A program made the position numbers and the translations under genes. Positions 7,178 to 22,928 of a stretch of DNA of 64,000 bases are shown piece after piece. The notes under the pieces were generated by a model that was not told the origin of the DNA, made no database searches, and worked only from the letters and a program-made list of their open reading frames with translations. Positions within the stretch are counted from its first letter, which is position 1; each line of letters opens with the position of its first letter. Source of the DNA: Escherichia coli (GTDB lineage Bacteria; Pseudomonadota; Gammaproteobacteria; Enterobacterales; Enterobacteriaceae); assembly GCF_009931435.1 (NCBI RefSeq), contig NZ_CP043414.1. One strand, given 5' to 3'.

Positions 7178-7936
7178 TTATTTTATCCCATCCGCGCTCA
7201 TACGATCGCGAATATGCTGGGCGCGTTCGGCGGATGCCGGATGGTCGTCAAACATTGAGCTTTGGCGGCCTTCTTCCAGTTTCGCCAGTTTTTCAAAGCT
7301 GGTGGCAAGACCAGCCGGGCTGATGCCGCGTTGGCGCAGAAGATCGTAAGAATAATCATCGGCTTCTGCTTCCTGGCGCTGGGAGAATTGCGAATTGACT
7401 AATTTCTCGCCCAGATCACCAAGTTGCGATTGCGATAAACTGCCGACAATCCCGCCCGCAGAGGCTGCCGCGACTCTCACGGCGTTGGTACCTAATGCAA
7501 CTTGCATCCCTTTCTTCACATGGCCTAACGCGACGTGCCCCATTTCGTGACCGATCACCGCTTCGACTTCGTTATCCGTCATCATATCCATTAGCCCGCT
7601 ATAGACGCGGATACAGCCGTTAGCCATTGCAAAGGCGTTCACATCCTTCGCCATATACACTTTGTAATTCACCGGCTGACCGTTGATATTGTTGCCTAGC
7701 GCATTGGCAATAGTTGTCAGACGTTTAGCGTATTCGCTATTGGCTGGCGCAATCGTCGCCTTGCTGTCCATCTCCTGACATGCCTGATCGCTCAGGGCTT
7801 TCACCTGCGCATCACTCAAACTGTAAGCCTGAAAAGCTTCCGCTCCTGATGAGAGCAGTCCGTTGGAGTCCATATTCTGGCAACCGGTCAGTACCGTTGC
7901 CACGCTCATTGCTACCAATAAGGCGCGAATTTTCAT
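7178..7936 (-). CDS. loiP: periplasmic M48 metalloprotease LoiP (YggG), lipoprotein
   Basis: 252 aa from MKIRALLVAMSVATVLTGC lipobox; HEMGH zinc motif; the 325-aa ORF-track version is an upstream over-extension. Confidence 0.9.
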   Translation of the reverse strand: MKIRALLVAMSVATVLTGCQNMDSNGLLSSGAEAFQAYSLSDAQVKALSDQACQEMDSKATIAPANSEYAKRLTTIANALGNNINGQPVNYKVYMAKDVNAFAMANGCIRVYSGLMDMMTDNEVEAVIGHEMGHVALGHVKKGMQVALGTNAVRVAAASAGGIVGSLSQSQLGDLGEKLVNSQFSQRQEAEADDYSYDLLRQRGISPAGLATSFEKLAKLEEGRQSSMFDDHPASAERAQHIRDRMSADGIK

Positions 7937-8213
7937 GTTTTCTCTTCCGCACAAGGTCAGGATTATTCTAAAAATGCGCCGTTTGCAGGTGAATCGACGC
8001 TCAGTCTCAGTATAAGGAAAAGCGCAGCGGACGGGCGAGCAGATTGCGCAACATGCGAGCATGATCCAGAGATTTCTGAAGCGGCAAAAGGATGTTCCAT
8101 GTACATGACGCGCGGCTTGCGGTAAATTGTTGGCAAATTTTCCGGCGTAGCCCAAAACGCGCTGTCGTCAAGTCGTTAAGGGCGTGCCCTTCATCATCCG
8201 ATCTGGAGTCAAA

Positions 8214-10205
8214 ATGTCCTCACGTAAAGAGCTTGCCAATGCTATTCGTGCGCTGAGCATGGACGCAGTACAGAAAGCCAAATCCGGTCACCCGGGTGCC
8301 CCTATGGGTATGGCTGACATTGCCGAAGTCCTGTGGCGTGATTTCCTGAAACACAACCCGCAGAATCCGTCCTGGGCTGACCGTGACCGCTTCGTGCTGT
8401 CCAACGGCCACGGCTCCATGCTGATCTACAGCCTGCTGCACCTCACCGGTTACGATCTGCCGATGGAAGAACTGAAAAACTTCCGTCAACTGCATTCCAA
8501 AACTCCGGGCCACCCGGAAGTGGGTTACACCGCTGGTGTGGAAACCACTACAGGTCCGCTGGGTCAGGGTATTGCCAATGCAGTCGGTATGGCGATTGCA
8601 GAAAAAACGCTGGCGGCACAGTTTAACCGTCCGGGCCACGACATCGTCGACCACTACACCTACGCCTTCATGGGCGACGGCTGCATGATGGAAGGCATCT
8701 CCCATGAAGTTTGCTCTCTGGCGGGTACGCTGAAGCTGGGTAAACTGATTGCGTTCTACGATGACAACGGTATCTCTATCGATGGTCACGTTGAAGGCTG
8801 GTTCACCGACGACACCGCAATGCGTTTCGAAGCTTACGGCTGGCACGTTATTCGCGGCATCGACGGTCATGACGCGGCATCCATCAAACGCGCAGTAGAA
8901 GAAGCGCGCGCAGTGACTGACAAACCGTCCCTGCTGATGTGCAAAACCATCATCGGTTTCGGTTCACCGAACAAAGCCGGTACGCACGACTCCCACGGTG
9001 CGCCGCTGGGCGACGCTGAAATTGCCCTGACCCGCGAACAGCTGGGCTGGAAATATGCACCGTTCGAAATCCCGTCTGAAATCTATGCTCAGTGGGATGC
9101 GAAAGAAGCAGGCCAGGCGAAAGAATCCGCATGGAACGAGAAATTCGCTGCTTACGCCAAAGCTTATCCGCAGGAAGCCGCTGAATTTACCCGCCGTATG
9201 AAAGGCGAAATGCCGTCTGACTTCGATGCCAAAGCGAAAGAATTCATCGCTAAACTGCAGGCTAATCCGGCGAAAATCGCCAGCCGTAAAGCGTCTCAGA
9301 ATGCGATTGAAGCGTTCGGCCCGCTGTTGCCGGAATTCCTCGGCGGCTCTGCTGACCTGGCACCGTCTAACCTGACCCTGTGGTCTGGTTCTAAAGCAAT
9401 CAACGAAGATGCTGCGGGTAACTACATCCACTATGGTGTTCGCGAGTTCGGTATGACCGCGATTGCTAACGGTATCTCCCTGCACGGTGGCTTCCTGCCG
9501 TACACCTCCACCTTCCTGATGTTCGTGGAATACGCACGTAACGCCGTACGTATGGCTGCGCTGATGAAACAGCGTCAGGTGATGGTTTACACCCACGACT
9601 CCATCGGTCTGGGCGAAGATGGCCCGACTCACCAGCCGGTAGAGCAGGTCGCTTCTCTGCGCGTGACCCCGAACATGTCCACATGGCGTCCGTGTGACCA
9701 GGTTGAATCCGCGGTCGCGTGGAAATACGGCGTTGAGCGTCAGGACGGCCCGACTGCGCTTATCCTCTCCCGTCAGAACCTGGCGCAGCAGGAACGCACT
9801 GAAGAGCAGCTGGCAAACATCGCGCGCGGTGGTTATGTGCTGAAAGACTGTGCCGGTCAGCCGGAACTGATCTTCATCGCTACCGGTTCTGAAGTTGAAC
9901 TGGCGGTTGCTGCCTACGAAAAACTGACTGCTGAAGGCGTGAAAGCGCGCGTGGTTTCCATGCCGTCTACCGACGCATTCGACAAGCAGGATGCGGCTTA
10001 CCGTGAGTCTGTACTGCCGAAAGCGGTTACTGCACGCGTTGCGGTGGAAGCTGGCATTGCTGACTACTGGTACAAGTATGTTGGCCTGAACGGTGCTATC
10101 GTCGGCATGACCACCTTCGGTGAATCTGCTCCGGCAGAGCTGCTGTTTGAAGAGTTCGGCTTCACCGTTGACAATGTTGTTGCGAAAGCAAAAGAACTGC
10201 TGTAA
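8214..10205 (+). CDS. tktA: transketolase 1
   Basis: 663 aa starting [12 protein letters not shown]; ATG 8214 with GGAG upstream; the ORF-track start at 8184 is an over-extension. Confidence 0.97.
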
Positions 10206-10227
10206 TCGGTAAGATGCTTTGTGAGAA

Positions 10228-10423
<196 letters not shown>

Positions 10424-10425
<2 letters not shown>

Positions 10426-11332
10426 ACTTAGTAGAGATAAACGGAACTGTACTGCCGGGGATCATGGTATCGGGTAGCTTACCGTCCCAACGCTCAGCAG
10501 TGGTGAGGGCAACAAGTCCGGGATTATCCCGCAGAGCTTCACCGCGCAGGCGGATCGCTTCTGCTTCAGCCGCACTTTTTAAACGAATAGTTTCAGCCTC
10601 TGCCGCGCCTCTTACGCGAATAGTCTCAGCTTCTGCTTTGGCTGCCGCCAGTTTACTGTCTGCTTCTGCCTGGGCCTGAGTTACCGCTATTTGCGCCTGG
10701 ATTTTCTCTGTTTCCAGATTTTGCTTACGTGTGGCAATGGCGACTTCTGCTTTCATTCGATCTTCAATCGATTTTTCATAAGCGTCAGAAAAATCAATAT
10801 TTTCAATCTGGACACCATCAATCACCACCGGGCCAACAACGGCTTTACGCATTGCATTTTGCAGATCCTGAACCAGTTTTGTACGATCCTGTACCGCGCT
10901 GATGGCGGTATATTGGCCGAAAACGTTCTCCAGTTGGGTTGGCAGCTGGCGGACGATCAGACGCTCTTTTAAAGATTCAATGGTGTTGTAGGTTGTATAA
11001 ACTGCGCCAGCTTCTGAAGGCTTAATATGAAAACTAACCGACACGGTCATTTGTGCCGGTTGCTGGTCGCGGCTGTAGGCCTGTAATCCCTGATAAACCA
11101 CAGCCTGATTACGCGTGGAAATTTTCTCTACGCTTTCCATAAAAGGGATCTTAAAACCCAGACCCGGCTCGGCAACTTTTACGATTTTTCCGTAGCGCAG
11201 CAAAATGCCGCGTTCACCTTCATTAACGGTGTAATACGAGAGAAATGGCAGCACAACCACGGTAAGCACGCCAATGGCGATAGCAATAGATTTTTGTGGG
11301 CGAAATGAGGTTATTGAAACAGGCGCTTTCAT
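10424..11332 (-). CDS. SPFH/band-7 (prohibitin/stomatin-like) membrane protein
   Basis: 302 aa; N-terminal TM segment, SPFH-like core, C-terminal Ala/Glu-rich repeats (AEAETIRVRGAAEAETIRLKSAAEAEAIRLRGEA); not in the K-12 tktA-cmtB gap as I recall it. Confidence 0.8.
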
Positions 11333-11707
11333 GAGAATCTTCCTTGAGTAAAGTGTGGGAATATGTCACATGAGGTGAGGAGAAAACAGCCAACAGGTGA
11401 GAATTCAGAATCTATAAAGGGGGAGAGCGAAAAACATCGGCTAAAAAAGTATGTTTTCGAACATTCAATAGATAAATAGAGATATGCATCACAAATACAT
11501 AGGCAGATAAAACATTGGTTTTGTGATAAACATAACAAACACAAACTTGACTTTATAAGTATAAATTTCATGTTGTTGTTATTTAACATTTTATTATTTT
11601 GGTTCATGTTTTTTTTCTTCTCGCGTGCCCAATTGCTTTCATTAAATCGCACGAGTATTTTATTTTTACCGCCGGACGGTACCCTAAAAATAAAATAAGG
11701 ATAATTT

Positions 11708-12151
11708 ATGCGGCTTATTGATTATTTTCCAGAATCATCAATCTCAGTTATACATTCAGCAAAAGATTGGCAGGAAGCTATCAATTTCTCGATGGCATCA
11801 TTGCTGGATAAAAACTATATCAGCGAGAATTACATTCAGGCTATTAAAGATTCCACCATTAACAATGGCCCTTATTATATTCTCGCACCAGGCGTGGCAA
11901 TGCCTCATGCGCGACCGGAATGTGGGGCGCTTAAAACCGGGATGTCTTTGACGTTACTTAAACAAGGCGTTTATTTTCCGGGGAATGACGAACCGATTAA
12001 ATTACTTATCGGTCTTTCTGCTGCCGATGCCGATTCGCACATTGGCGCTATTCAGGCGTTAAGTGAATTGCTGTGCGAAGAAGAAATACTTGAACAACTC
12101 TTAACTGCAACATCAGAAAAACAATTAGCGGACATTATCAGCCGCGAATAA
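11708..12151 (+). CDS. cmtB: cryptic mannitol-family PTS EIIA
   Basis: 147 aa; synteny with cmtA. Confidence 0.9.
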   Translation: MRLIDYFPESSISVIHSAKDWQEAINFSMASLLDKNYISENYIQAIKDSTINNGPYYILAPGVAMPHARPECGALKTGMSLTLLKQGVYFPGNDEPIKLLIGLSAADADSHIGAIQALSELLCEEEILEQLLTATSEKQLADIISRE

Positions 12152-12178
12152 TGACTCTCTCCTCTACAGGATAATATT

Positions 12179-13567
12179 ATGGAAAACAAGTCTGCTCGTG
12201 CAAAGGTCCAGGCTTTTGGGGGCTTTTTGACGGCAATGGTCATCCCCAATATTGGTGCTTTTATTGCCTGGGGTTTTATTACTGCATTATTTATTCCTAC
12301 TGGTTGGCTGCCTAACGAACATTTCGCCAAAATTGTCGGCCCGATGATTACCTATTTATTGCCCGTAATGATTGGTTCTACCGGTGGCCATTTAGTCGGC
12401 GGTAAACGCGGCGCAGTCATGGGCGGAATAGGGACAATTGGTGTAATCGTCGGCGCAGAAATCCCGATGTTCCTTGGTTCAATGATCATGGGACCGTTAG
12501 GTGGGCTGGTCATAAAATATGTCGATAAGGCACTGGAAAAACGCATACCTGCTGGTTTTGAGATGGTTATCAATAACTTCTCATTAGGTATCACCGGGAT
12601 GCTCCTTTGTCTGCTGGGTTTTGAAGTTATCGGCCCGGCGGTGTTAATTGCCAATACTTTCGTCAAAGAGTGTATTGAGGCGCTGGTACATGCGGGCTAT
12701 CTGCCTTTGCTGTCAGTCATCAATGAACCGGCGAAAGTGCTTTTCCTCAATAACGCGATAGATCAGGGCGTCTATTACCCGTTGGGGATGCAACAGGCTT
12801 CAGTTAACGGTAAATCCATCTTCTTTATGGTGGCGTCCAACCCTGGGCCTGGCTTAGGACTGCTGCTGGCGTTTACTTTGTTTGGTAAAGGGATGAGTAA
12901 ACGTTCTGCGCCCGGGGCGATGATTATTCACTTCCTCGGTGGGATCCACGAACTGTATTTCCCGTATGTGCTGATGAAGCCGCTGACCATTATTGCCATG
13001 ATTGCCGGCGGTATGTCTGGCACCTGGATGTTTAACTTACTGGACGGTGGTCTGGTGGCTGGTCCAAGTCCGGGGTCTATCTTTGCTTACCTTGCACTGA
13101 CGCCGAAAGGCTCGTTCCTGGCGACAATTGCCGGTGTTACGGTAGGTACCCTGGTGTCCTTTGCTATCACTTCCGTAATACTGAAGATGGAAAAAACGGT
13201 GGAAACGGAGAGCGAAGATGAGTTTGTGCAGTCCGCCAATGCGGTTAAGGCGATGAAACAAGAAGGTACATTCTCGTTAAGCCGGGTTAAGCGTATCGCC
13301 TTTGTTTGCGATGCGGGAATGGGCTCTAGCGCGATGGGCGCAACCACCTTCCGTAAGCGCCTGGAAAAAGCGGGGCTGGCAATAGAAGTAAAACATTACG
13401 CGATAGAAAACGTGCCTGCAGATGTGGATATCGTCGTTACTCACGCTAGTCTGGAAGGGCGCGTGAAACGTGTGACGGATAAACCGCTGATATTGATTAA
13501 TAACTATATTGGCGATCCCAAACTCGACACTTTATTTAATCAATTAACCGCTGAACATAAAAACTGA
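12179..13567 (+). CDS. cmtA: cryptic mannitol-family PTS EIICB
   Basis: 462 aa membrane protein with C-terminal EIIB domain. Confidence 0.9.
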   Translation: MENKSARAKVQAFGGFLTAMVIPNIGAFIAWGFITALFIPTGWLPNEHFAKIVGPMITYLLPVMIGSTGGHLVGGKRGAVMGGIGTIGVIVGAEIPMFLGSMIMGPLGGLVIKYVDKALEKRIPAGFEMVINNFSLGITGMLLCLLGFEVIGPAVLIANTFVKECIEALVHAGYLPLLSVINEPAKVLFLNNAIDQGVYYPLGMQQASVNGKSIFFMVASNPGPGLGLLLAFTLFGKGMSKRSAPGAMIIHFLGGIHELYFPYVLMKPLTIIAMIAGGMSGTWMFNLLDGGLVAGPSPGSIFAYLALTPKGSFLATIAGVTVGTLVSFAITSVILKMEKTVETESEDEFVQSANAVKAMKQEGTFSLSRVKRIAFVCDAGMGSSAMGATTFRKRLEKAGLAIEVKHYAIENVPADVDIVVTHASLEGRVKRVTDKPLILINNYIGDPKLDTLFNQLTAEHKN

Positions 13568-13581
13568 TTGCCGAGGTAAAA

Positions 13582-14859
13582 ATGAAAACCAAAGTTGTTG
13601 CTATTTATGGCAAGCGGGATGTCCGTCTGCGCGAATTTGAACTGCCCAAAATTACCGATAATGAACTGCTGGTGAGTGTAATTTCTGACAGTGTGTGTTT
13701 ATCGACCTGGAAAGCGGCGTTACTCGGTAGCGAACATAAACGCGTGCCCGACGATTTAGAAAATCATCCGGTCATTACCGGGCATGAATGTGCCGGGATT
13801 ATTGTTGAAGTGGGGAAAAATCTTACCGACAAATATAAAAAAGGCCAACGTTTTGTATTGCAACCGGCGATGGGGCTACCAAGCGGGTATTCTGCGGGAT
13901 ACAGCTACGAATATTTTGGCGGTAACGCCACCTATATGATTATTCCAGAGGTAGCCATTAATTTGGGCTGCGTATTACCGTATCACGGATCTTATTTTGC
14001 TGCGGCGTCGCTGGCAGAGCCGATGTGCTGCATTATTGGCGCTTATCATGCCAATTATCACACCACGCAATATGTTTATGAGCATCGCATGGGCGTCAAA
14101 CCTGGCGGCAATATTGCGCTGCTGGCGTGTGCGGGCCCGATGGGGATAGGCGCTATCGATTACGCTATTCACGGCGGCATACAACCGTCGCGGGTAGTGG
14201 TGGTCGATATCGACGACAAACGCCTGGCACAGGTGCAGAAGCTGCTGCCGGTGGAGCTGGCGGCCAGCAAAGGCATTGAGCTGATATATGTGAATACCAA
14301 AGGAATGGCCGATCCGGTACAGAAGCTGCGGGCGCTGACAGGAGATGCTGGGTTCGATGACATTTTTGTTTATGCGGCGGTGCCTGCTGTCGTTGAGATG
14401 GCTGACGAATTACTGGCGGAAGATGGCTGCCTGAACTTCTTTGCCGGGCCGACGGATAAAAACTTCAAAGTGCCGTTTAATTTCTACAACGTCCATTACA
14501 ACAGCACGCACGTCGTCGGTACATCGGGTGGTTCAACGGACGATATGAAAGAGGCGATTGCCCTGAGCGCCACGGGGCAGTTGCAACCGTCGTTTATGGT
14601 GACGCATATCGGTGGCCTGGATGCAGTGCCAGAAACCGTTCTCAATTTACCGGATATCCCCGGTGGTAAAAAACTCATTTACAACGGCGTTACCATGCCG
14701 CTCACCGCCATTGCCGATTTTGCCGAAAAAGGCAAAACCGATCCGCTGTTTAAAGAGCTGGCGCGGTTAGTTGAGGAAACGCACGGCATCTGGAATGAAC
14801 AGGCCGAGAAATATCTGCTGGCACAATTTGGCGTTGATATCGGGGAGGCCGCGCAATGA
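13582..14859 (+). CDS. yggP: zinc-type alcohol/polyol dehydrogenase family protein
   Basis: 425 aa; MDR-family features; synteny. Confidence 0.85.
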   Translation: MKTKVVAIYGKRDVRLREFELPKITDNELLVSVISDSVCLSTWKAALLGSEHKRVPDDLENHPVITGHECAGIIVEVGKNLTDKYKKGQRFVLQPAMGLPSGYSAGYSYEYFGGNATYMIIPEVAINLGCVLPYHGSYFAAASLAEPMCCIIGAYHANYHTTQYVYEHRMGVKPGGNIALLACAGPMGIGAIDYAIHGGIQPSRVVVVDIDDKRLAQVQKLLPVELAASKGIELIYVNTKGMADPVQKLRALTGDAGFDDIFVYAAVPAVVEMADELLAEDGCLNFFAGPTDKNFKVPFNFYNVHYNSTHVVGTSGGSTDDMKEAIALSATGQLQPSFMVTHIGGLDAVPETVLNLPDIPGGKKLIYNGVTMPLTAIADFAEKGKTDPLFKELARLVEETHGIWNEQAEKYLLAQFGVDIGEAAQ

Positions 14860-15821
14860 TGTCCCTGGCGTGGCCATTATTTCGCGTTACGGAGCAGGCA
14901 GCGTTGGCTGCCTGGCCGCAAACCGGATGTGGCAACAAAAATAAAATTGATGGCCTGGCGGTCACCGCGATGCGCCAGGCATTAAACGATGTCGCTTTTC
15001 GTGGGCGAGTGGTTATCGGCGAGGGAGAAATTGACCATGCGCCGATGCTGTGGATTGGCGAAGAGGTGGGCAAAGGCGATGGGCCAGAAGTCGATATCGC
15101 GGTTGATCCCATTGAAGGTACGCGGATGGTGGCGATGGGGCAGAGCAATGCGCTGGCGGTCATGGCTTTCGCCCCTCGAGATAGCCTGTTACACGCGCCC
15201 GATATGTATATGAAAAAACTGGTTGTTAATCGGCTGGCGGCGGGCGCGATTGATCTGTCTTTGCCTCTGGCGGACAACTTGCGCAACGTGGCGAAAGCGT
15301 TGGGCAAACCGCTGGACCAGCTACGTATGGTTACGCTAGATAAACCGCGCCTGAGAGCCGCAATTGAGGAAGCGACACAACTGGGCGTGAAGGTTTTTGC
15401 CCTGCCGGATGGCGATGTCGCCGCCAGCGTGCTGACCTGCTGGCAAGATAATCCTTACGACGTGATGTACACCATCGGTGGCGCGCCGGAAGGTGTTATT
15501 TCTGCCTGTGCTGTTAAAGCATTGGGTGGGGATATGCAGGCCGAGCTGATTGATTTTTGTCAGGCAAAAGGGGATTACACGGAAAATCGGCAGATTGCAG
15601 AGCAGGAGCGCAAGCGTTGCAAGGAAATGGGCGTTGACGTTAACCGTGTGTACTCGCTCGATGAACTGGTGAGGGGGAACGATATCCTCTTTAGCGCTAC
15701 GGGCGTGACGGGCGGTGAGTTGGTGAACGGTATCCAACAGACGGCGAATGGGGTGCGGACGCAGACATTACTGATCGGCGGCGCGGACCAAACGTGTAAT
15801 ATAATAGACTCCCTGCATTGA
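14856..15821 (+). CDS. yggF: class II fructose-1,6-bisphosphatase (GlpX paralog)
   Basis: 321 aa; start overlaps yggP stop (ATGATG); GlpX-like. Confidence 0.85.
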   Translation: MMSLAWPLFRVTEQAALAAWPQTGCGNKNKIDGLAVTAMRQALNDVAFRGRVVIGEGEIDHAPMLWIGEEVGKGDGPEVDIAVDPIEGTRMVAMGQSNALAVMAFAPRDSLLHAPDMYMKKLVVNRLAAGAIDLSLPLADNLRNVAKALGKPLDQLRMVTLDKPRLRAAIEEATQLGVKVFALPDGDVAASVLTCWQDNPYDVMYTIGGAPEGVISACAVKALGGDMQAELIDFCQAKGDYTENRQIAEQERKRCKEMGVDVNRVYSLDELVRGNDILFSATGVTGGELVNGIQQTANGVRTQTLLIGGADQTCNIIDSLH

Positions 15822-15842
15822 TGGTGATCTATCGGAAGACCA

Positions 15843-16352
15843 ATGGCGACGCTGACAGAAGATGATGTGCTTGAGCAACTGGACGCACAGGACAATTTAT
15901 TGTCATTTATGAGAACTACACATGTCATTTTGCTCCAGGGGATACGCCAGTTTCTGCCGTCGCTGTTTGTCGATAATGATGAAGAGATCGTGGAATATGC
16001 AGTGAAGCCGTTACTCGCTCAAAGCGGCCCGCTTGACGATATTGATGTTGCGCTACGTTTGATTTTTGCGCTGGGGAAAATGGACAAATGGCTGTATGCC
16101 GATATCACGCACTTTTCCCAGTTCTGGCATTACCTGAATGAACAGGATGAAACGCCCGGATTTGCCGATGACATTACCTGGGATTTTATCAGCAACGTCA
16201 ATAGCATAACCCGCAATGCGACGCTCTATGACGCGTTAAAAGCGATGAAGTTCGCTGATTTCGCCGTCTGGTCAGAGGTGCGTTTTAGTGGGATGGTCAA
16301 AACGGCGCTGACGCTGGCAGTAACGACCACCTTAAAGGAATTAACGCCGTGA
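15843..16352 (+). CDS. yggD: MtlR-like transcriptional regulator
   Basis: 169 aa; synteny. Confidence 0.8.
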   Translation: MATLTEDDVLEQLDAQDNLLSFMRTTHVILLQGIRQFLPSLFVDNDEEIVEYAVKPLLAQSGPLDDIDVALRLIFALGKMDKWLYADITHFSQFWHYLNEQDETPGFADDITWDFISNVNSITRNATLYDALKAMKFADFAVWSEVRFSGMVKTALTLAVTTTLKELTP

Positions 16353-17062
16353 AAATCGAACTGACGGTGAATGGATTGAAGGTACAGGCGCAGTACCCGA
16401 ACGAAGAGATTGAAAATGTGCATAAACCGTTGCTGCGTATGCTGGCAGCCTTACAGACGGTAAATCCGCAGCGGCGTACCGTGGTTTTTCTTTGCGCTCC
16501 GCCGGGGACGGGTAAATCTACCCTAACCACTTTCTGGGAATATCTCGCGCAACAAGACCCGGAACTACCCGCTATTCAGACGCTGCCGATGGATGGTTTT
16601 CACCATTACAATAGCTGGCTGGATGCGCATCAATTGCGCCCCTTTAAAGGCGCACCAGAGACATTCGATGTGGCAAAACTGGCGGAAAATCTGCGCCAGG
16701 TAATGGAAGGGGATTGTACGTGGCCGCAGTACGATCGACAAAAGCATGATCCTGTTGAAGATGCGTTGCACGTTACCGCACCACTCGTCATCGTCGAAGG
16801 AAACTGGTTGTTGCTGGATGACGAGAAGTGGCGCCAGCTTGCGCAATTTTGTGATTTCTCGATCTTTATCAACGCGCCAGCTACTGCGTTGCGGGAACGA
16901 CTGGTGGGGCGCAAGCTGGCGGGAGGGTTATCGCTGGCAGACGCAGAAGCCTTTTATGACCGTACCGATGGGCCGAATGTTCGCCGGGTGCTGGAAGAGA
17001 GTCTGCCTGCAAATTTGACCTTAATGATGACCGCTACGGGTGAATATCGTCTGGTGGATTAA
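16349..17062 (+). CDS. yggC: P-loop nucleoside/sugar kinase-family protein
   Basis: 237 aa; GTG start; Walker A PPGTGKST. Confidence 0.85.
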   Translation: MKIELTVNGLKVQAQYPNEEIENVHKPLLRMLAALQTVNPQRRTVVFLCAPPGTGKSTLTTFWEYLAQQDPELPAIQTLPMDGFHHYNSWLDAHQLRPFKGAPETFDVAKLAENLRQVMEGDCTWPQYDRQKHDPVEDALHVTAPLVIVEGNWLLLDDEKWRQLAQFCDFSIFINAPATALRERLVGRKLAGGLSLADAEAFYDRTDGPNVRRVLEESLPANLTLMMTATGEYRLVD

Positions 17063-17711
17063 CGTTCCTGATTACACCATCTTCCAGTCGCACCACACGA
17101 GAGAAATGACGCCGGGTAAATGCGGCGTCATGACTGATTGCTACGACGCTCGTGCCTCGCTGGCGGCACTTTTCCAGCCAGCTTTCAAACACGCTCATCC
17201 AATTTTCGTCAAAATCCCGACTCGGCTCGTCCAGCAGCAATAGCGGCGGAGAGAGTGCTTCCAGGCAGGCGACGGCGACCATCCGTCGCTGCGCACTATG
17301 CAGATCTAACGGATGCGCGCTGGCAGTGTCTGCTAACTGACAGCATTGCAGGGCAGCATTGGTACGTTGAGTGATTTCATCCGCCAGGCATTTTTGCAGT
17401 TTCAAACCAAATGCGATCTCGTCAGCGACGGTGCTGTGAAAAAGCTGGTTTTCCGCTTCCTGAAACAGTACGCCAATCTTTGCTGCACGTTGGCGGTTTT
17501 TCAGGTTTTTCATCGCCTGTTGTTGCAGCATAACCGTACCGGCTGTGGGCGTAAGAAGACCTGCCATTACTCGTAACAGCGTCGATTTTCCCGCGCCATT
17601 GTCGCCGGTCAGCGCCAACCATTCACCTTGTTTGAGTTGCAGAGAAATGTCGCAAAGACAATCCGTTGCCGCGCCAGGCCAGCGATAAGACATCTGATTT
17701 AACGTTAACAT
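17034..17711 (-). CDS. ABC/ECF transporter ATPase subunit with degenerate signature motif
   Basis: Walker A GDNGAGKST; signature position reads LHSAQ instead of LSGGQ; Walker B LLLLDEPS; ATG 17711 (ORF track starts at GTG 17744); 3' end overlaps yggC by 29 bp. Confidence 0.8.
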   Translation of the reverse strand: MLTLNQMSYRWPGAATDCLCDISLQLKQGEWLALTGDNGAGKSTLLRVMAGLLTPTAGTVMLQQQAMKNLKNRQRAAKIGVLFQEAENQLFHSTVADEIAFGLKLQKCLADEITQRTNAALQCCQLADTASAHPLDLHSAQRRMVAVACLEALSPPLLLLDEPSRDFDENWMSVFESWLEKCRQRGTSVVAISHDAAFTRRHFSRVVRLEDGVIRNVNPPDDIHP

Positions 17712-18382
17712 AGTGGCTGGAGCGCTCCGTTTTGCAATTGCCACGCTTGCTGGCAGTAGTTCAGGAAAGGTGTGCGATGACGTTCAAAAAGAATAATCAG
17801 CGAACCACGTTCAAACGCCCAGTGTTGTAAGCGCTGCAACAGCATTTCGCTGGCCTGCGGCGTCAGGCGACTAAAGGCTTCATCAAGAATTAATAGTTTT
17901 GGCTGCATCGCGATGGCGCAGGCGATGACCACGCGCTGTGTCTCTCCACCGGAGAGTGTTGCCGGGTGACGATGGCGCAACGGCTGGCACTCGGTCAGAG
18001 TCAGGGCAGCATCAATCCGCGCCATAATCTCCTCTTCAGCAAGACACAGATTTTCTGGCCCAAAGGCAACTTCTTCTTCCACGCTAAAGGTACAGCCGGA
18101 GAGCTGCAAATAGGGCGATTGCTGAACGAGCTGGATGGTGGCGGATTGTTCATTAAGCGGGAGATACCCAATGGGCGTACCGAGAAGCGTCCCCGTGCCG
18201 GTTATCTCTCCTGGCAGAAAGTCCGGATACCAGCCCGCCATCAGTTGCGCCAGCGTACTTTTGCCACTGCCGTTGTCACCAAAGATGGCGACTATCCCCG
18301 GTTTGACATAGTGAAAGTCATAACAGAACGGAGGGTGCGTTGAGTGTGTCGGGCAATAGCGAAACTGTTCTAACGTAACCAT
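17705..18382 (-). CDS. ABC/ECF transporter ATPase subunit (near-canonical)
   Basis: Walker A GDNGSGKST, signature LSGGETQR, Walker B LLILDEAF; start either ATG 18382 or GTG 18388, both overlapping the upstream T gene. Confidence 0.8.
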   Translation of the reverse strand: MVTLEQFRYCPTHSTHPPFCYDFHYVKPGIVAIFGDNGSGKSTLAQLMAGWYPDFLPGEITGTGTLLGTPIGYLPLNEQSATIQLVQQSPYLQLSGCTFSVEEEVAFGPENLCLAEEEIMARIDAALTLTECQPLRHRHPATLSGGETQRVVIACAIAMQPKLLILDEAFSRLTPQASEMLLQRLQHWAFERGSLIILFERHRTPFLNYCQQAWQLQNGALQPLC

Positions 18383-19077
18383 ATCCACGCTCCGAATTCT
18401 GCCAGCATCAGCAAGATCATGGCGTAACGTGCCACTTTTTCCAGGTTACTGTCAGGCGGTGCCCATAACGTAGTGCGCCGGTTGTGGATCCGAAATGCCC
18501 GCATATCCAGCGCCGCACCACGGATAGCCAGATCGTTTAGCGCATTGTGTGTTAGCGGAATAATTAGCGCGGGTATAGCACGTAAACGCTGATACCAGCC
18601 CTCATCCAGCGGCACCCCACGGGCGCGCTGCGCTTCATGAATAATCGCTAATTGCCGTTTTAACTGCTCAACGACCAACAAAGGCCCAGCGAACAGATAA
18701 GCGACGCCCGGCGGCAGGCGAGAAGCAAACAAAGCGCGGATAAAACGTTGCACTGGGACGAATTGCATCCACAACTGCGAGGTTGAAACAATCGCCAGAA
18801 TCCGCAACCAGAGCGTAATAGCATGCGTCCACCGTTCTGGCGAGCGTGGCGTGCCGCTTAGCCATTCTGTCAGCCAGCCACCGTGTACCAGCCACAGTCC
18901 AGCCCCCAGCGAGAACATCAGCCAGACAACATATTTTACCCGCCGCCGCGTGGCCTTTAGCGCAATAAGGCAGAAAAAGGTCGCCGCGCTATAGAATGGC
19001 AGTATTGTCTGTGTGGGCAGGATAAGCGTGGTGCAGGCCGCCAGCGCCCACAGCGTTAGGGATGTAAACGGATGCAT
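18370..19077 (-). CDS. ECF transporter transmembrane (T/CbiQ-family) component
   Basis: 235 aa polytopic membrane protein with Ala-Arg-Gly-type coupling motifs (QRARGVP, AIRGAALD); ATG directly follows the upstream TAA. Confidence 0.75.
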   Translation of the reverse strand: MHPFTSLTLWALAACTTLILPTQTILPFYSAATFFCLIALKATRRRVKYVVWLMFSLGAGLWLVHGGWLTEWLSGTPRSPERWTHAITLWLRILAIVSTSQLWMQFVPVQRFIRALFASRLPPGVAYLFAGPLLVVEQLKRQLAIIHEAQRARGVPLDEGWYQRLRAIPALIIPLTHNALNDLAIRGAALDMRAFRIHNRRTTLWAPPDSNLEKVARYAMILLMLAEFGAWIWLR

Positions 19078-19656
19078 TTAGCGCACGGCAGCCATTGCCG
19101 GAAAATGGCGCGTGGTGCGAATCGGCAGCTGACGCAGTAAAAGCCAGACAATCACCGCTGTAAGAATTTTATCGACCAGGTTTGCGCCTATCACCGTAAT
19201 CGCCACCGACTCCACCAGGTTTTGCCCCATAGAGTGCATCCAGGCAACGAACAAATCGGCTCCGCTACCGGTGACACCGCCGAACAGCGCAGTACGCAGC
19301 GGTACAGCGACGACCGTTACTGCAAGCGTAATAATCACGCCGCTGACAACGACTTTTGGCAGGGTGCGAAACCAACCCGCTCGCGCCAGCCAACCGGCGA
19401 CCAGGCCAATAACCATCGCCACGGGGGCAAAGGCGGCGGCGATCGGGTCGGTGAGCAATCCCCAGAGTAAATTGGTCAGTAAGCCGGTCAGCATCCCGAT
19501 CACCGGACCAAGCAGTACCGCGCTAATAAGTGTGCCGATGGAGTCGAGAAATATAGGTAATTTGACCATGCTGGCCAGTTGCCCGCCAATCATATTGATG
19601 GCGATAGAGATAACAATCAACACCAGTGCTTGACTGGAAAAGTGGCGACGCGCCAT
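19078..19656 (-). CDS. ECF transporter substrate-capture (S) component, substrate unknown
   Basis: 192 aa from MARRHFSS (ATG 19656, GAGAGG upstream); about 6 predicted TM segments; AVLLGPVIG motif as in S components; the ORF-track N-terminal extension would overlap the upstream gene. Confidence 0.7.
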   Translation of the reverse strand: MARRHFSSQALVLIVISIAINMIGGQLASMVKLPIFLDSIGTLISAVLLGPVIGMLTGLLTNLLWGLLTDPIAAAFAPVAMVIGLVAGWLARAGWFRTLPKVVVSGVIITLAVTVVAVPLRTALFGGVTGSGADLFVAWMHSMGQNLVESVAITVIGANLVDKILTAVIVWLLLRQLPIRTTRHFPAMAAVR

Positions 19657-19678
19657 AAGAAAACCTCTCTGAAAGTAG

Positions 19679-20110
19679 TTATTTAACGGGGGAAATATGC
19701 AATTCGTCGTAACCAGAAAGCGCGCAAGGTTGGCGGCTAAACGCCAGCTCCTCAAGGCAGCCGATCACCAGTTCAAGCGTGGTCCGCACGGTACAGCCGG
19801 GCATCATATGACCGCCAAGCATCGTGCCGTGTGGATCGGAAACGCAGAGATGAAGATGTTCACCACTCTGTTCCAGTGTGCCGTTCAATGCGATGACTTC
19901 GAACTTACCGCTTAGTAGGGCCGTGTTTTCTTGCCCGGCATAGCGTAAGGCGACGTCAGTCAGACTGCCGGTACAACCTGCAATCCACGCGGCGTGGAGT
20001 TGTTGTTGCTGCGCGAAGGCGCGTAATTGGGAGAGAACTTCCTGCCCTGGGAGCAGGCGCAGCGCGTAAAAGCGTGCGGAGGAAGAATATGGGTAGGGCA
20101 ATGTCATCAT
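19679..20110 (-). CDS. PPC/DUF296-domain protein (predicted DNA-binding)
   Basis: 143 aa; first gene of the operon, GGAG upstream of ATGATG; my recollection is that this resembles bacterial PCC-domain proteins. Confidence 0.6.
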   Translation of the reverse strand: MMTLPYPYSSSARFYALRLLPGQEVLSQLRAFAQQQQLHAAWIAGCTGSLTDVALRYAGQENTALLSGKFEVIALNGTLEQSGEHLHLCVSDPHGTMLGGHMMPGCTVRTTLELVIGCLEELAFSRQPCALSGYDELHISPVK

Positions 20111-20238
20111 TGGAGTACTCCGAAACTCGGACGTATTGCGGATAATATCGACGCTGCATCAGTCATATTCTGATATAAGTCAGGGTTTGTGACGGCACAA
20201 CGAAAAGATTTTGCTACGCTTATTCGTGATTCTGCAAA

Positions 20239-20254
20239 GTGGAATAAATTCCAC
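20239..20254. promoter_or_regulatory. candidate operator: perfect palindrome GTGGAAT-AA-ATTCCAC
   Basis: 7-bp perfect inverted arms in the divergent region; an extra ATTCCAC half-site at 20323-20329; second palindrome TTGTG-N4-CACAA at 20187-20200. Confidence 0.4.
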
Positions 20255-20481
20255 AGGGGCGGGGATGAAAACGTGACGTAAGTCAGATAATTGTCTTCTT
20301 TGACTGGACAATCATTCCTTTTATTCCACGTTTCGCTTATCCTAGCTGAAGCGTTTCAGTCGATTAAATGTTCGACAATTAACCAATCAGTCGCAGTTTG
20401 CGACAGGTAAGGTTTCCCCGGACGATTTGCTGGATTACTCTGTCTGGCAAATTTGCTCAGGGAAAACCTTGCAGGAGATCT

Positions 20482-21501
20482 ATGACCGTACGCGTAGCGA
20501 TAAATGGCTTCGGTCGCATCGGGCGTAATGTGGTTCGTGCTTTGTATGAATCCGGACGCCGGGCGGAAATTACCGTGGTGGCAATCAACGAACTGGCGGA
20601 TGCTGCGGGCATGGCGCATTTGTTGAAATATGACACCAGTCATGGCCGTTTTGCATGGGAAGTACGACAGGAACGCGATCAACTTTTTGTTGGTGATGAC
20701 GCCATCCGCGTATTGCATGAACGTTCACTGCAATCGCTCCCATGGCGTGAACTGGGCGTCGATGTGGTTCTCGACTGCACCGGCGTATATGGCTCCCGCG
20801 AGCATGGCGAAGCACATATTGCCGCCGGGGCCAAAAAAGTGCTCTTTTCACATCCTGGCAGTAACGATCTCGATGCGACCGTTGTTTACGGCGTCAATCA
20901 GGATCAACTTCGTGCGGAACACCGCATCGTTTCTAACGCTTCCTGTACCACGAATTGCATAATTCCCGTCATCAAATTGTTAGATGATGCGTACGGTATT
21001 GAGTCCGGCACTGTGACCACAATTCACTCCGCCATGCACGATCAACAGGTTATTGATGCATACCATCCTGACCTGCGTCGCACCCGGGCAGCCAGCCAGT
21101 CGATCATTCCGGTCGATACTAAACTGGCCGCCGGTATCACACGATTTTTTCCGCAATTTAACGATCGCTTTGAAGCGATTGCGGTACGTGTGCCAACCAT
21201 AAATGTGACGGCAATCGATTTAAGCGTGACGGTGAAGAAACCTGTAAAAGCCAATGAAGTCAACCTGTTGCTGCAAAAAGCAGCACAAGGTGCATTTCAT
21301 GGTATAGTTGACTATACGGAATTGCCGTTGGTCTCTGTAGATTTTAACCACGATCCGCACAGTGCCATTGTCGATGGCACCCAAACCCGGGTCAGTGGCG
21401 CACACCTGATCAAAACGTTGGTCTGGTGCGATAACGAATGGGGCTTTGCTAACCGAATGCTCGACACGACGTTAGCTATGGCTACTGTTGCTTTCAGGTA
21501 A
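20482..21501 (+). CDS. epd: D-erythrose-4-phosphate dehydrogenase
   Basis: 339 aa starting [15 protein letters not shown]; AGGAG upstream; ORF-track start at TTG 20398 is over-extended. Confidence 0.95.
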
Positions 21502-21550
21502 GACGCAAGCAGCGTCTGCAAAACTTTTAGAATCAACGAGAGGATTCACC

Positions 21551-22714
21551 ATGTCTGTAATTAAGATGACCGATCTGGATCTTGCTGGGAAACGTGTATT
21601 TATCCGTGCGGATCTGAACGTACCAGTAAAAGACGGGAAAGTAACCAGCGACGCGCGTATCCGTGCTTCTCTGCCGACCATCGAACTGGCCCTGAAACAA
21701 GGCGCGAAAGTGATGGTAACTTCCCACCTGGGTCGTCCTACCGAAGGCGAGTACAACGAAGAATTCTCTCTGCTGCCGGTTGTTAACTACCTGAAAGACA
21801 AACTGTCTAACCCGGTTCGTCTGGTTAAAGATTACCTCGACGGCGTTGACGTTGCTGAAGGTGAACTGGTTGTTCTGGAAAACGTTCGCTTCAACAAAGG
21901 CGAGAAGAAAGACGACGAAACTCTGTCCAAAAAATATGCTGCACTGTGTGACGTGTTCGTAATGGACGCATTCGGTACTGCTCACCGCGCGCAGGCTTCT
22001 ACTCACGGTATCGGTAAATTCGCTGATGTTGCGTGCGCAGGCCCGCTGCTGGCAGCTGAACTGGACGCGCTGGGTAAAGCACTGAAAGAACCTGCTCGCC
22101 CGATGGTGGCTATCGTTGGTGGTTCTAAAGTATCTACCAAACTGACCGTTCTGGATTCCCTGTCCAAAATCGCTGACCAGCTGATCGTGGGTGGTGGTAT
22201 CGCTAACACCTTTATCGCGGCACAAGGCCACGATGTGGGTAAATCCCTGTACGAAGCTGACCTGGTTGACGAAGCAAAACGTCTGCTGACCACCTGCAAC
22301 ATTCCGGTTCCGTCTGACGTTCGCGTAGCAACTGAGTTCTCTGAAACTGCACCGGCTACCCTGAAATCTGTTAACGATGTGAAAGCTGACGAGCAGATCC
22401 TGGATATCGGCGATGCTTCTGCGCAGGAACTGGCTGAAATCCTGAAGAATGCGAAAACCATTCTGTGGAACGGCCCGGTTGGCGTGTTCGAATTCCCGAA
22501 CTTCCGCAAAGGTACTGAAATCGTGGCTAACGCTATCGCAGACAGCGAAGCGTTCTCCATCGCTGGTGGCGGTGACACTCTGGCAGCAATCGACCTGTTC
22601 GGCATTGCTGACAAAATCTCCTACATCTCCACTGGCGGCGGCGCATTCCTCGAATTCGTGGAAGGTAAAGTACTGCCTGCAGTAGCGATGCTCGAAGAGC
22701 GCGCTAAGAAGTAA
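21551..22714 (+). CDS. pgk: phosphoglycerate kinase
   Basis: 387 aa starting [25 protein letters not shown]. Confidence 0.97.
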
Positions 22715-22723
22715 AAAATCACA

Positions 22724-22747
22724 GGGCAGGGAAACCTGCCCTTGTTG
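22724..22747 (+). terminator. hairpin after pgk (partial terminator/attenuator before fbaA)
   Basis: gggcagg-gaaa-cctgccc followed by ttgttg. Confidence 0.5.
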
Positions 22748-22776
22748 CAGCGCGCTTTTAGAGCACGCATTTTTTC

Positions 22777-22902
22777 ATACTCTAAATAATTCGAGTTGCA
22801 GGAAGGCGACAAGAGAGTGAATCCTCAGGAGCTTACATAAGTAAGTGACTGGGGGGAGCGAACGCAGACGCAGCACATGCAACTTGAAGTATGACGAGTA
22901 TA
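22777..22902. repeat. ERIC (enterobacterial repetitive intergenic consensus) element in the fbaA leader
   Basis: Contains GTGAATCC-CAGGAGCTTACA and AAGTAAGTGACTGGGG-GAGCG cores (the ERIC1R/ERIC2 primer sites); about 126 bp imperfect palindrome; about 97 percent identical to the reverse complement of 34763-34889. Confidence 0.9.
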
Positions 22903-22928
22903 AGGCCCGACGATACAGGACAAGAGAC

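Follow-up and report, generated by a model that had tools for sequence, protein, structure and literature searches.

The cmtBA-yggPFDC cluster of Escherichia coli, a conserved PTS-linked operon and candidate route for a mannitol-like polyol

The gene cluster cmtB-cmtA-yggP-yggF-yggD-yggC of Escherichia coli contig NZ_CP043414.1 (RefSeq assembly GCF_009931435.1) is an ordinary core-genome orthologue of the K-12 operon of the same composition, a gene set that has been known and named for decades. Here, we report its analysis within a 64,000-nucleotide stretch of that contig (the window) and propose, with about even confidence, that it is a CRP-dependent core-genome catabolic module for a mannitol-like polyol, in which a PTS, the dehydrogenase YggP, and the kinase YggC would act in turn to form a sugar bisphosphate that joins glycolysis. 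The interest is modest, that of an orphan pathway that can now be tested more sharply.

All six open reading frames lie on the plus strand at positions 11708-17062 and contain no internal stop, in keeping with the original prediction that they are intact. They are cmtB (11708-12151; PTS EIIA of the mannitol/fructose type, 147 amino acids [aa]), cmtA (12179-13567; EIICB of the mannitol family, 462 aa), yggP (13582-14859; zinc-type medium-chain dehydrogenase and SorE paralogue, 425 aa), yggF (14856-15821; class II [GlpX-type] fructose-1,6-bisphosphatase [FBPase], 321 aa), yggD or fumE (15843-16352; MtlR-family protein, 169 aa), and yggC (16349-17062; P-loop kinase with a GTG start, 237 aa). Every product is exactly as long as its K-12 orthologue, and the RefSeq annotation of the genes is identical to that of the K-12 operon. 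The yggF start overlaps the yggP stop by 4 nt (ATGA) and a second ATG follows, so the "ATGATG" given for this junction is literally correct (...CAATGATGTCC); likewise, the GTG start of yggC overlaps the yggD stop by 4 nt (GTGA). Translational coupling had been claimed for the whole cluster, but these two are the sole overlaps among its five junctions; at the other three, the genes lie 27, 14, and 21 nt apart, with Shine-Dalgarno-like motifs in the gaps. Terminator-like sites showed no excess within the cluster.

Compared with E. coli K-12 cmtBA-yggPFDC (b2934-b2928), the genes, their order, lengths, and junctions, and the placement between tktA and epd-pgk-fbaA are identical. Amino acid identity is 95 to 99% in five genes (CmtB, 96.0%; CmtA, 98.7%; YggP, 97.7%; YggF, 98.5%; YggD, 94.7%) and 85.7% in YggC, whose C-terminal third, beginning near 16808, is a diverged allele with 67% amino acid identity to K-12. 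The cluster as a whole is unusually diverged, at 94.3% nucleotide identity versus 97.2% and 98.6% for flanking core genes; synonymous codon differences greatly outnumber nonsynonymous ones (222 versus 70 over six genes; 170 versus 36 with yggC left out). Since the cluster was found in 5,425 of 5,426 complete E. coli genomes (5,388 of them with query coverage of at least 80%), its intactness is no finding by itself.

Accessory genes had been predicted on both sides, and both flanks indeed hold genes that are not in K-12 and whose presence varies across E. coli: a prohibitin/SPFH gene (10424-11332, minus strand) separates tktA from cmtB, and a four-gene ECF transporter with a PPC-domain gene (17034-20110, minus strand) separates yggC from epd. 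The promoter region upstream of cmtB (11333-11707, plus strand) is AT rich (GC content, 0.35); homology with K-12 begins at 11626, leaving the proximal 82 bp (11626-11707) conserved. Two CRP-like matches lie upstream of cmtB (11478-11493 and 11522-11537), and across the window such matches are not above chance (29 found, 25 expected). In K-12, CRP activates the cmtB promoter (PMC3105977, PMC12412646). An intragenic sigma-54 binding motif in yggP (CTGGCGGCAATATTGCG; 14102-14118, plus strand) is the window's only such match (0.03 expected); it is one base away from its K-12 counterpart, which was mapped by ChIP-seq (PMC4591121).

An argument for a common pathway comes from a census of 84 loci, each from a separate species. 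The six-gene order of E. coli recurs in 48 loci of other species, all Enterobacterales, so the arrangement is no chance one; the census also holds 6 loci from Rahnella/Budvicia, 19 from Vibrionaceae, and 10 from Clostridia. Wherever the contig allows, EIIA, EIICB, YggP, and YggC are adjacent, and they form an invariant core common to Enterobacterales, Vibrionaceae, and Clostridia, whose membership is kept while gene order is rearranged. This linkage across three distant lineages strengthens the earlier claim of one coherent pathway. The phosphatase is an accessory member: GlpX-type YggF serves most enteric loci, an unrelated PHP-domain protein replaces it in all 19 Vibrionaceae loci, and neither Rahnella nor Budvicia nor any of the ten Clostridial loci has one in the cluster. 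In Clostridia, an HTH-PRD-EIIA regulator stands in place of YggD. Phosphatase and regulator are thus displaced by nonhomologous proteins at the same positions.

Family models (NCBIfam and Pfam) bore out all the gene identities. CmtB matches NF007358 (323 bits; cutoff, 192) and PF00359 and carries the motif GVAMPHARP, which we take to be the place of the family's phosphorylatable histidine. CmtA matches NF011663 (593 bits; cutoff, 589), TIGR00851 (481 bits; cutoff, 468), PF02378, and PF02302; its IIB domain contains VCDAGMGSS, presumably the place of the phosphorylatable cysteine, as in MtlA. A Rahnella MtlA-like IICBA protein is 52% identical to CmtA.

No published substrate for the cluster was found in a literature search; the original prediction, too, named none. 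Part of the phenotype-array check proposed there has already been published at promoter level: in a PcmtA-gfp screen of 198 Biolog compounds, nucleosides were the top inducers, with uridine strongest, and no polyol was among the top inducers (PMC12412646). Deletion of cmtA in K-12, unlike that of mtlA, left a mannitol-dependent phenotype unaffected (PMC11656735). Both results make mannitol a doubtful candidate for the physiological substrate.

YggP matches PF08240 and PF00107, and its zinc-ligand and NAD-motif residues (C39, H68, E69, E146, and AGPMG...D209) are invariant in 10 diverse homologues. Its only close characterized relative is the L-sorbose-1-phosphate reductase SorE (46% identity to the Klebsiella protein over the full length; E = 2e-133), encoded within a canonical sor operon; the other dehydrogenases found are at most 29% identical. 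Many databases name YggP homologues "L-sorbose 1-phosphate reductase," and fructose-type PTS permeases, relatives of the mannitol family, make ketose-1-phosphates. One might therefore suppose that a ketose (such as L-sorbose, D-tagatose, or D-psicose) enters through the PTS as its 1-phosphate and is then reduced by YggP, in the manner of SorE, to a hexitol phosphate. We consider this improbable: CmtA scores above the MtlA family cutoffs, as a mannitol-type (polyol) EIICB, a SorD-equivalent second dehydrogenase (hexitol phosphate to fructose-6-phosphate) is linked in none of the 84 loci, and the always-linked kinase would be left without a role. Furthermore, an ST131 mutant lacking sorE fails to use L-sorbose (PMC12817954) although virtually all E. 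coli carry the cluster; YggP is therefore not simply a SorE isozyme.

YggC (NF006742, 520 bits; cutoff, 402) has the Walker A motif PPGTGKST and is related to pantothenate and uridine kinases. Among known structures it comes closest to 3c8u, deposited as "fructokinase" (E = 1e-23), with pantothenate kinases next; YggC has also been predicted independently to be a sugar/polyol kinase (PMC3223725). The NCBIfam name is "nucleoside/nucleotide kinase family," and uridine kinase models match weakly, which, with the nucleoside response of PcmtA-gfp, could suggest a nucleoside-linked operon with YggC as a nucleoside kinase. Such a function is very unlikely, as some dozen further sugar-transporter promoters are likewise induced by uridine and cmtAB is under CRP control (PMC12412646), YggC is nearer to pantothenate kinases and the "fructokinase" chain than to Udk, and a nucleoside-cleaving enzyme is linked in no lineage of the census.

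YggF is a class II FBPase by family model (TIGR00330, 583 bits; cutoff, 259) and matches the GlpX structures 1ni9 and 3d1r (E, about 1e-110). According to PMC8719807, FBPase activity was reported for K-12 YggF (Brown 2009, as cited there), the enzyme is catalytically weaker than Fbp, and yggF deletion slightly lowers fermentative growth on glycerol. YggD belongs to the MtlR family (PF05068, 174 bits; NF007455, 328 bits) and matches PDB entry 3c8g (E = 1.7e-106; "putative transcriptional regulator" to its depositors) and the MtlR structures 6kcr and 3brj. It has been reported as fumarase E, which is now its RefSeq name, and ChIP-exo detected no DNA binding (PMC8464067), so a role as regulator is one that we infer. 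These reports, and the label "cryptic," which mirrors the absence of any phenotype, would also fit a cluster with no common pathway, in which cmtBA would be a mannitol permease, redundant and silent, and the other four genes independent housekeeping spares (a backup FBPase, a minor fumarase, and an unrelated kinase). We regard this as highly improbable, given the overlapping stop and start codons, the core linkage that E. coli shares with Vibrio and Clostridia, and the positional replacement of phosphatase and regulator.

In the proposed polyol pathway, CmtB and CmtA, whose domain architecture is evident from the family matches, would import a polyol and phosphorylate its terminal hydroxyl at the cost of PEP, giving a polyol-1-phosphate. 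YggP, as an NAD-type zinc dehydrogenase, would run the SorE reaction backward, oxidizing the carbon beside the phosphorylated one to give a ketose-1-phosphate; YggC, always linked to YggP, would phosphorylate this again, forming a ketose-1,6-bisphosphate. The regiochemistry is extrapolated from the SorE paralogue. From stereochemistry, D-glucitol-6-phosphate (the SorE product) and D-mannitol-1-phosphate differ in configuration at a single carbon, the one most distant from the phosphate, and a SorE-type oxidation of the latter would therefore give D-fructose-1-phosphate. Were the polyol D-mannitol, the intermediates would be fructose-1-phosphate and fructose-1,6-bisphosphate, the product being cleavable by housekeeping aldolase; fructose-1-phosphate could already be handled by FruK, however, so a dedicated kinase would be less obviously needed. 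YggF may be an accessory step that regenerates fructose-6-phosphate for biosynthesis when carbon enters below it, the part that glpX plays in glpFKX, and YggD may be the MtlR-type regulator of the pathway, probably acting by contacting other proteins and not by binding DNA directly.

D-Arabitol is mannitol minus one carbon and is on standard Biolog carbon plates. In a pentitol variant, which we think unlikely, the PTS would convert it to D-arabitol-5-phosphate, which has the configuration of mannitol-1-phosphate at the three carbons nearest the phosphate (derived from stereochemistry); YggP would form D-xylulose-1-phosphate, YggC would phosphorylate C5 to give xylulose-1,5-bisphosphate, and YggF or the PHP protein would remove the 1-phosphate, releasing xylulose-5-phosphate to the pentose phosphate pathway. 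This scheme employs every enzyme of the cluster, where kinase and bisphosphatase together otherwise look futile, and the Vibrio YggC homologue is assigned in Pfam to PRK (phosphoribulokinase/uridine kinase). It makes the phosphatase essential, yet Rahnella, Budvicia, and the Clostridial loci do without one; GlpX-type enzymes are not known to act on xylulose-1,5-bisphosphate, and the PcmtA screen, with no polyol among its top inducers, speaks against D-arabitol.

The preferred polyol pathway resembles several known systems in part. With mtlADR (MtlA EIICBA, MtlD mannitol-1-phosphate 5-dehydrogenase, and MtlR), the cluster shares mannitol-family EIIC, EIIB, and EIIA domains and an MtlR-family protein, but its EIIA is a separate protein, its dehydrogenase is a SorE-related zinc-type medium-chain enzyme with MtlD-family models absent from its matches, and it has an extra kinase and phosphatase. 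SorE of the sor operon (L-sorbose PTS, SorE, and the glucitol-6-phosphate dehydrogenase SorD) is likewise encoded beside a PTS; that operon, however, has a mannose-family four-subunit PTS, a second dehydrogenase of the SDR type, and SorC as regulator, and lacks both a kinase and a phosphatase, whereas YggP is accompanied by a mannitol-family PTS and a kinase. The proposed logic is that of fruBKA and the tagatose/galactitol pathways (FruK, TagK, and the gat genes), where a PTS yields a ketose phosphate and an ATP-dependent kinase makes the ketose-1,6-bisphosphate cleaved by aldolase; FruK belongs to the PfkB/ribokinase family, unlike the P-loop enzyme YggC, and the cmt cluster has no linked aldolase. 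Finally, glpFKX (glycerol facilitator, kinase, and the FBPase GlpX) also cotranscribes a class II FBPase with genes for substrate uptake and phosphorylation, and there too the product joins glycolysis below fructose-6-phosphate, although the substrate and upstream enzymes of the cmt cluster differ.

Open reading frames (ORFs) were listed over 9000-20000 of the window, and families were assigned with NCBIfam and Pfam. Six consecutive plus-strand ORFs lay exactly where the original prediction had placed them, namely, cmtB (11708-12151), cmtA (12179-13567), yggP (13582-14859), yggF (14856-15821), yggD (15843-16352), and yggC (16349-17062), and RefSeq has this set of six annotated both in the best-matching genome and in the E. 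coli reference K-12, where yggD is named fumE. They had been read as a mannitol-type PTS, a polyol dehydrogenase, a class II FBPase, an MtlR-like regulator, and a P-loop kinase; the gene identities passed the family tests, and the reading is supported. CmtB was a PTS EIIA protein of the EIIA-2 type (NF007358, 323 bits, cut-off 192; PF00359) and CmtA a mannitol-family EIICB protein (PF02378 and PF02302) whose scores narrowly exceeded both cut-offs (NF011663, 593 bits, cut-off 589; TIGR00851, 481 bits, cut-off 468). An EIIC membrane domain and a IIB domain in CmtA, with a separate EIIA-2 domain in CmtB, agree with the curated family definitions, and the motifs VCDAGMGSS (CmtA IIB) and GVAMPHARP (CmtB IIA) were found, which we take from MtlA and EIIA-2 proteins to be the phosphorylatable Cys and His active-site motifs.

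YggP was a zinc-type medium-chain dehydrogenase of the polyol-dehydrogenase type (PF08240, GroES-like; PF00107, Rossmann). YggF was a class II FBPase of the GlpX family, with a full-length equivalog match (TIGR00330, 583 bits, cut-off 259; PF03320, 405 bits) and matches to the GlpX structures PDB 1ni9 and 3d1r at E ~1e-110. YggD belonged to the MtlR family (PF05068, 174 bits, residues 5-167 of 169) and matched PDB 3c8g at E 1.7e-106, as well as the MtlR structures 6kcr and 3brj. YggC was a P-loop kinase related to pantothenate/uridine kinases (NF006742, 520 bits, cut-off 402), carrying the Walker A motif PPGTGKST and matching the PanK and Udk models more weakly; structural matches were pantothenate kinases, PDB 2ga8, and PDB 3c8u, called a “fructokinase” by its depositors, and a Vibrio homologue is recorded with Pfam PRK.

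The predicted intactness of all six genes was borne out, each ORF matching its K-12 orthologue in length and being free of internal stops. Amino acid identities to K-12 were 96.0% (cmtB), 98.7% (cmtA), 97.7% (yggP), 98.5% (yggF), 94.7% (yggD), and 85.7% (yggC), and the codon differences comprised 222 synonymous and 70 nonsynonymous changes, an excess that indicates purifying selection on the cluster. A decaying pseudogene cluster was ruled out by the full-length ORFs, the large synonymous excess, and the universal presence of the genes. Translational coupling, originally proposed for the whole cluster, holds strictly at two junctions, yggP/yggF (4-nt ATGA overlap, with a second ATG directly after) and yggD/yggC (4-nt GTGA overlap); the other three are gaps of 27, 14, and 21 nt, each with Shine-Dalgarno-like motifs, where coupling is only plausible, so the strict claim is restricted to the two overlaps. 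Terminator-like sites were not enriched within the cluster (5 versus 7.6 expected), and a promoter and terminator scan returned nothing in excess of shuffled sequence. With one strand, overlaps or very short gaps, and no such enrichment, the six genes are predicted to form a single operon. An intragenic sigma-54 binding site in yggP (14102-14118), known from K-12 ChIP-seq (PMC4591121), was kept with one mismatch.

Occurrence of the cluster in E. coli is not unusual: its 5.4 kb matched 5,425 of 5,426 complete genomes and was at least 80% covered in one place in 5,388. Its allele is slightly unusual. Identity over the cluster was at least 99% in 1 E. coli record, 95 to 99% in 126, and 90 to 95% in 5,297, and nucleotide identity to K-12 was 94.3% for the cluster (11626-16993), 97.2% for loiP-tktA (7178-10206), and 98.6% for epd-pgk (20261-23128). 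Either this allele was acquired by recombination with a diverged Escherichia lineage, or evolution at the locus is unusually fast. yggC was a mosaic with a sharp break near 16808; codons 1 to 150 were 97% identical to K-12 in amino acids and the rest (16808-17062) 67%, and this 3' third shared 91 to 97% identity with E. albertii, E. whittamii, and two other Escherichia species. E. albertii and E. whittamii, both with this 3' end, were the two compared Escherichia loci that aligned continuously through the ECF island downstream; the same 3' end also occurred in two compared loci without the island, so the link between allele and island is not strict.

The ECF island (17034-20110, minus strand) encoded two ECF/ABC ATPases, a T component weakly matching CbiQ, an S component, and a DNA-binding protein with a PPC domain. 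Convergent with yggC, the island overlaps the final 29 nt of that gene and is followed by epd-pgk. Upstream, a prohibitin/SPFH (Band 7) gene (10424-11332, minus strand) separated cmtB from tktA, which ends at 10205. The cluster had been described as flanked on both sides by accessory genes, and this description was correct: both insertions were absent from K-12 and variably present in the sampled E. coli hits, and an evenly spaced sample of hits contained all four presence/absence combinations, which together mark both flanks as accessory. Coverage of 10200-19800 was at least 80% in 3,306 of the 5,426 complete E. coli genomes, the ECF island was carried by at least ~61% of complete genomes, and the prohibitin/SPFH gene was missing from roughly one-half to two-thirds of those sampled. 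The window departs from the species norm only in its diverged allele and accessory neighbors.

The prohibitin/SPFH gene also replaces the distal cmtB upstream region, K-12 homology restarting only 82 bp before cmtB. A CRP consensus search gave 29 matches versus 25 expected; two of these, not significant, lie upstream of cmtB in sequence that K-12 does not share. An Rfam scan of 10000-20500 detected no riboswitch or leader, its sole match being a REP-like element after tktA (ES036, 10312-10354, 48.9 bits). This element is bracketed by two copies of a perfect 22-nt GC-rich hairpin, AAGGGCCGCGAAAGCGGCCCTT, one just after tktA (10226-10247) and the other just after the end of the prohibitin/SPFH gene (10400-10421).

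The cluster is the familiar y-gene operon of K-12, intact as is normal for it; the observation is confirmed, and interest in the cluster rests on the substrate question. No substrate is assigned to the cmt-ygg operon in the papers found by full-text literature searches, so the original view of a pathway lacking a published substrate stands as far as could be searched. The cmtB promoter is bound and activated by cAMP-CRP (PMC3105977), and a PcmtAB-gfp fusion confirmed its activation by CRP (PMC12412646). On 198 Biolog compounds, this fusion was induced most strongly by uridine, bromosuccinate, and inosine, followed by other nucleosides; polyol inducers were not reported, and a dozen other transporter promoters were likewise induced by uridine (PMC12412646). 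Tobramycin MIC rose after cmtA deletion, and cmtAB overexpression increased aminoglycoside uptake (PMC12412646). cmtB was upregulated two- to threefold in bovine digestive contents (PMC6199705). The cluster itself belongs to the core genome and adjoins central glycolytic genes.

For a comparative census, a YggP alignment was scanned against one genome per species, yielding 80 loci, which with four fetched earlier made 84; ORFs were labeled by BLASTP against the window proteins. Six genes in identical order were found in 48 of the 84 loci, every one in Enterobacterales, including Escherichia, Citrobacter, Salmonella arizonae and diarizonae, Klebsiella, Raoultella, Enterobacter, Buttiauxella, Providencia, Yersinia, Serratia, and Hafnia. 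Five Rahnella species and Budvicia were missing yggF. Vibrionaceae (19 loci) had cmtB-cmtA-yggP-yggD-yggC followed by a PHP-domain protein in place of yggF, and Clostridia (10 loci) had EIIA-yggC-EIICB-yggP plus an HTH-Mga-PRD-EIIA regulator, with neither yggD nor a phosphatase. One further locus (L011) was a short truncated contig with just yggP and partial yggF. Across lineages, the PTS pair, YggP, and YggC thus form an invariant core, and the phosphatase and regulator are replaceable.

Several neighbors were inspected individually. A candidate substitute phosphatase in Rahnella (a 265-aa ORF after yggC) proved to be a DsbA/ScsC-type thioredoxin protein, and PFK was rejected as a module member in Clostridia, adjoining the cluster in only 3 of 10 loci, two of them with identical sequence. 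A 304-aa ORF in Lacrimispora, without a Pfam match, is probably a split regulator, since its position corresponds to that of the C-terminal half of a PRD regulator of 685 aa in other Clostridia. In the five Rahnella loci (L051 to L055, about 11900-15800), an MtlA-type IICBA gene lay ~1.4 to 3.4 kb downstream of the five-gene cluster lacking yggF, and in four of these loci an MtlR-like gene came after it (in L051, a 382-aa ORF lies between IICBA and the MtlR-like gene). From size and order, this neighbor looks like a canonical mtlADR operon, which would place two mannitol-type systems side by side. A record titled Chryseobacterium sp. 18061 (L038) carried an Enterobacteriaceae-type six-gene cluster with YggP 87 to 88% identical to that of the window; such a cluster is implausible in a Bacteroidota genome, and the assembly is probably contaminated or mislabeled.

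YggP was highly conserved, with 64 to 83% identity across E. coli, Vibrio, and Clostridia, and the zinc ligands C39, H68, E69, and E146 and the nucleotide motif AGPMG...D209 were invariant in all 10 homologues compared. When YggP was searched against plasmid records (tblastn), annotated sorE, encoding the L-sorbose-1-phosphate reductase of the sor operon, matched at 45 to 46% identity over 97% of the length, and all other matches were at or below 29%; a pairwise BLASTP comparison of YggP with SorE gave 46% identity (E 2e-133). The Klebsiella sorE match lay in a canonical sor operon (SorC-type regulator, SDR dehydrogenase, four-subunit mannose-family PTS, then sorE), and the 84 census loci instead placed YggP with a mannitol-family PTS and kinase, outside any sor-operon context. 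An ST131 sorE deletion mutant does not use L-sorbose (PMC12817954), although almost every E. coli carries the yggP cluster. At 46% identity YggP is a paralogue of SorE, and this phenotype indicates that it is not an isozyme. SorE reduces L-sorbose-1-phosphate to D-glucitol-6-phosphate (PMC12817954). It therefore works on the carbon adjoining the phosphorylated one, which sets it apart from MtlD, SrlD, and GatD.

If YggP keeps the regiochemistry of SorE, a polyol-1-phosphate made by CmtAB would be oxidized to a ketose-1-phosphate. A ketose-1-phosphate must be phosphorylated again before an aldolase can cleave it, just as fructose-1-phosphate requires FruK, and this need would explain why the kinase is the sole enzyme always linked to YggP. 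To our knowledge, the pantothenate/uridine-kinase-related fold is not known as a sugar-phosphate kinase in catabolism. A sugar/polyol kinase function has been predicted for YggC, and experiments were described as “in progress” in 2011 (PMC3223725). In Fischer projections, the sole difference between D-mannitol-1-phosphate and D-glucitol-6-phosphate is at the carbon most distant from the phosphate. D-Fructose-1-phosphate would thus be the product if D-mannitol-1-phosphate underwent SorE-type oxidation, and YggC would then convert it to fructose-1,6-bisphosphate (FBP). With entry at FBP, an FBPase would be needed to make fructose-6-phosphate for biosynthesis, which would explain an accessory YggF or Vibrio PHP protein that is dispensable where housekeeping enzymes suffice. 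According to Brown (2009), as cited in PMC8719807, K-12 YggF has FBPase activity; E. coli has several FBPases, among which YggF is weaker than Fbp, and deleting yggF causes a modest loss of fermentative growth on glycerol (PMC8719807).

The mannitol route has weak points. In K-12, mannitol does not seem to induce the system, nor does the system seem to be required for mannitol, since loss of cmtA, unlike loss of mtlA, left a mannitol-dependent phenotype unaffected (PMC11656735), and FruK could already handle fructose-1-phosphate. The leading alternative is a pentitol route, in which D-arabitol, as D-arabitol-5-phosphate, would pass through xylulose-1-phosphate and xylulose-1,5-bisphosphate to xylulose-5-phosphate; it puts kinase and phosphatase to use in series and hence predicts an indispensable phosphatase, a prediction contradicted by the census loci without one. 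Taking both as candidate routes, mannitol via fructose-1-phosphate to FBP or D-arabitol to xylulose-5-phosphate, we tentatively suggest, as a possibility that we would not yet call probable, that the EIIA-EIICB-YggP-YggC core constitutes an undescribed PTS-linked polyol catabolism with oxidation beside the phosphate and phosphorylation of the resulting ketose-1-phosphate by YggC, to which nonhomologous GlpX- or PHP-type phosphatases were added by lineage.

All 73 proteobacterial loci that were sufficiently complete had YggD, and a PRD regulator takes its slot in Clostridia, a pattern that favors a regulatory role tied to the operon for this putative regulator. YggD showed no DNA binding in ChIP-exo and is cited as a “verified fumarase E” (PMC8464067); the absent ChIP-exo peaks would fit a regulator acting through protein contacts.

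Identification of the substrate would fill in a missing part of E. coli metabolism, give a function to a kinase family extending to plants (At1g03030; PMC3223725), and settle whether YggD deserves the “fumarase E” label that RefSeq now propagates. The census and the SorE relationship make concrete, cheap enzyme assays possible, and these could settle the substrate. Among known systems, the sor operon surrounds sorE with a mannose-family PTS, SorD, and SorC, whereas yggP stands beside a mannitol-family PTS and a kinase; in the glpFKX operon, glpX parallels the accessory FBPase (YggF, or the Vibrio PHP protein) of the cluster.
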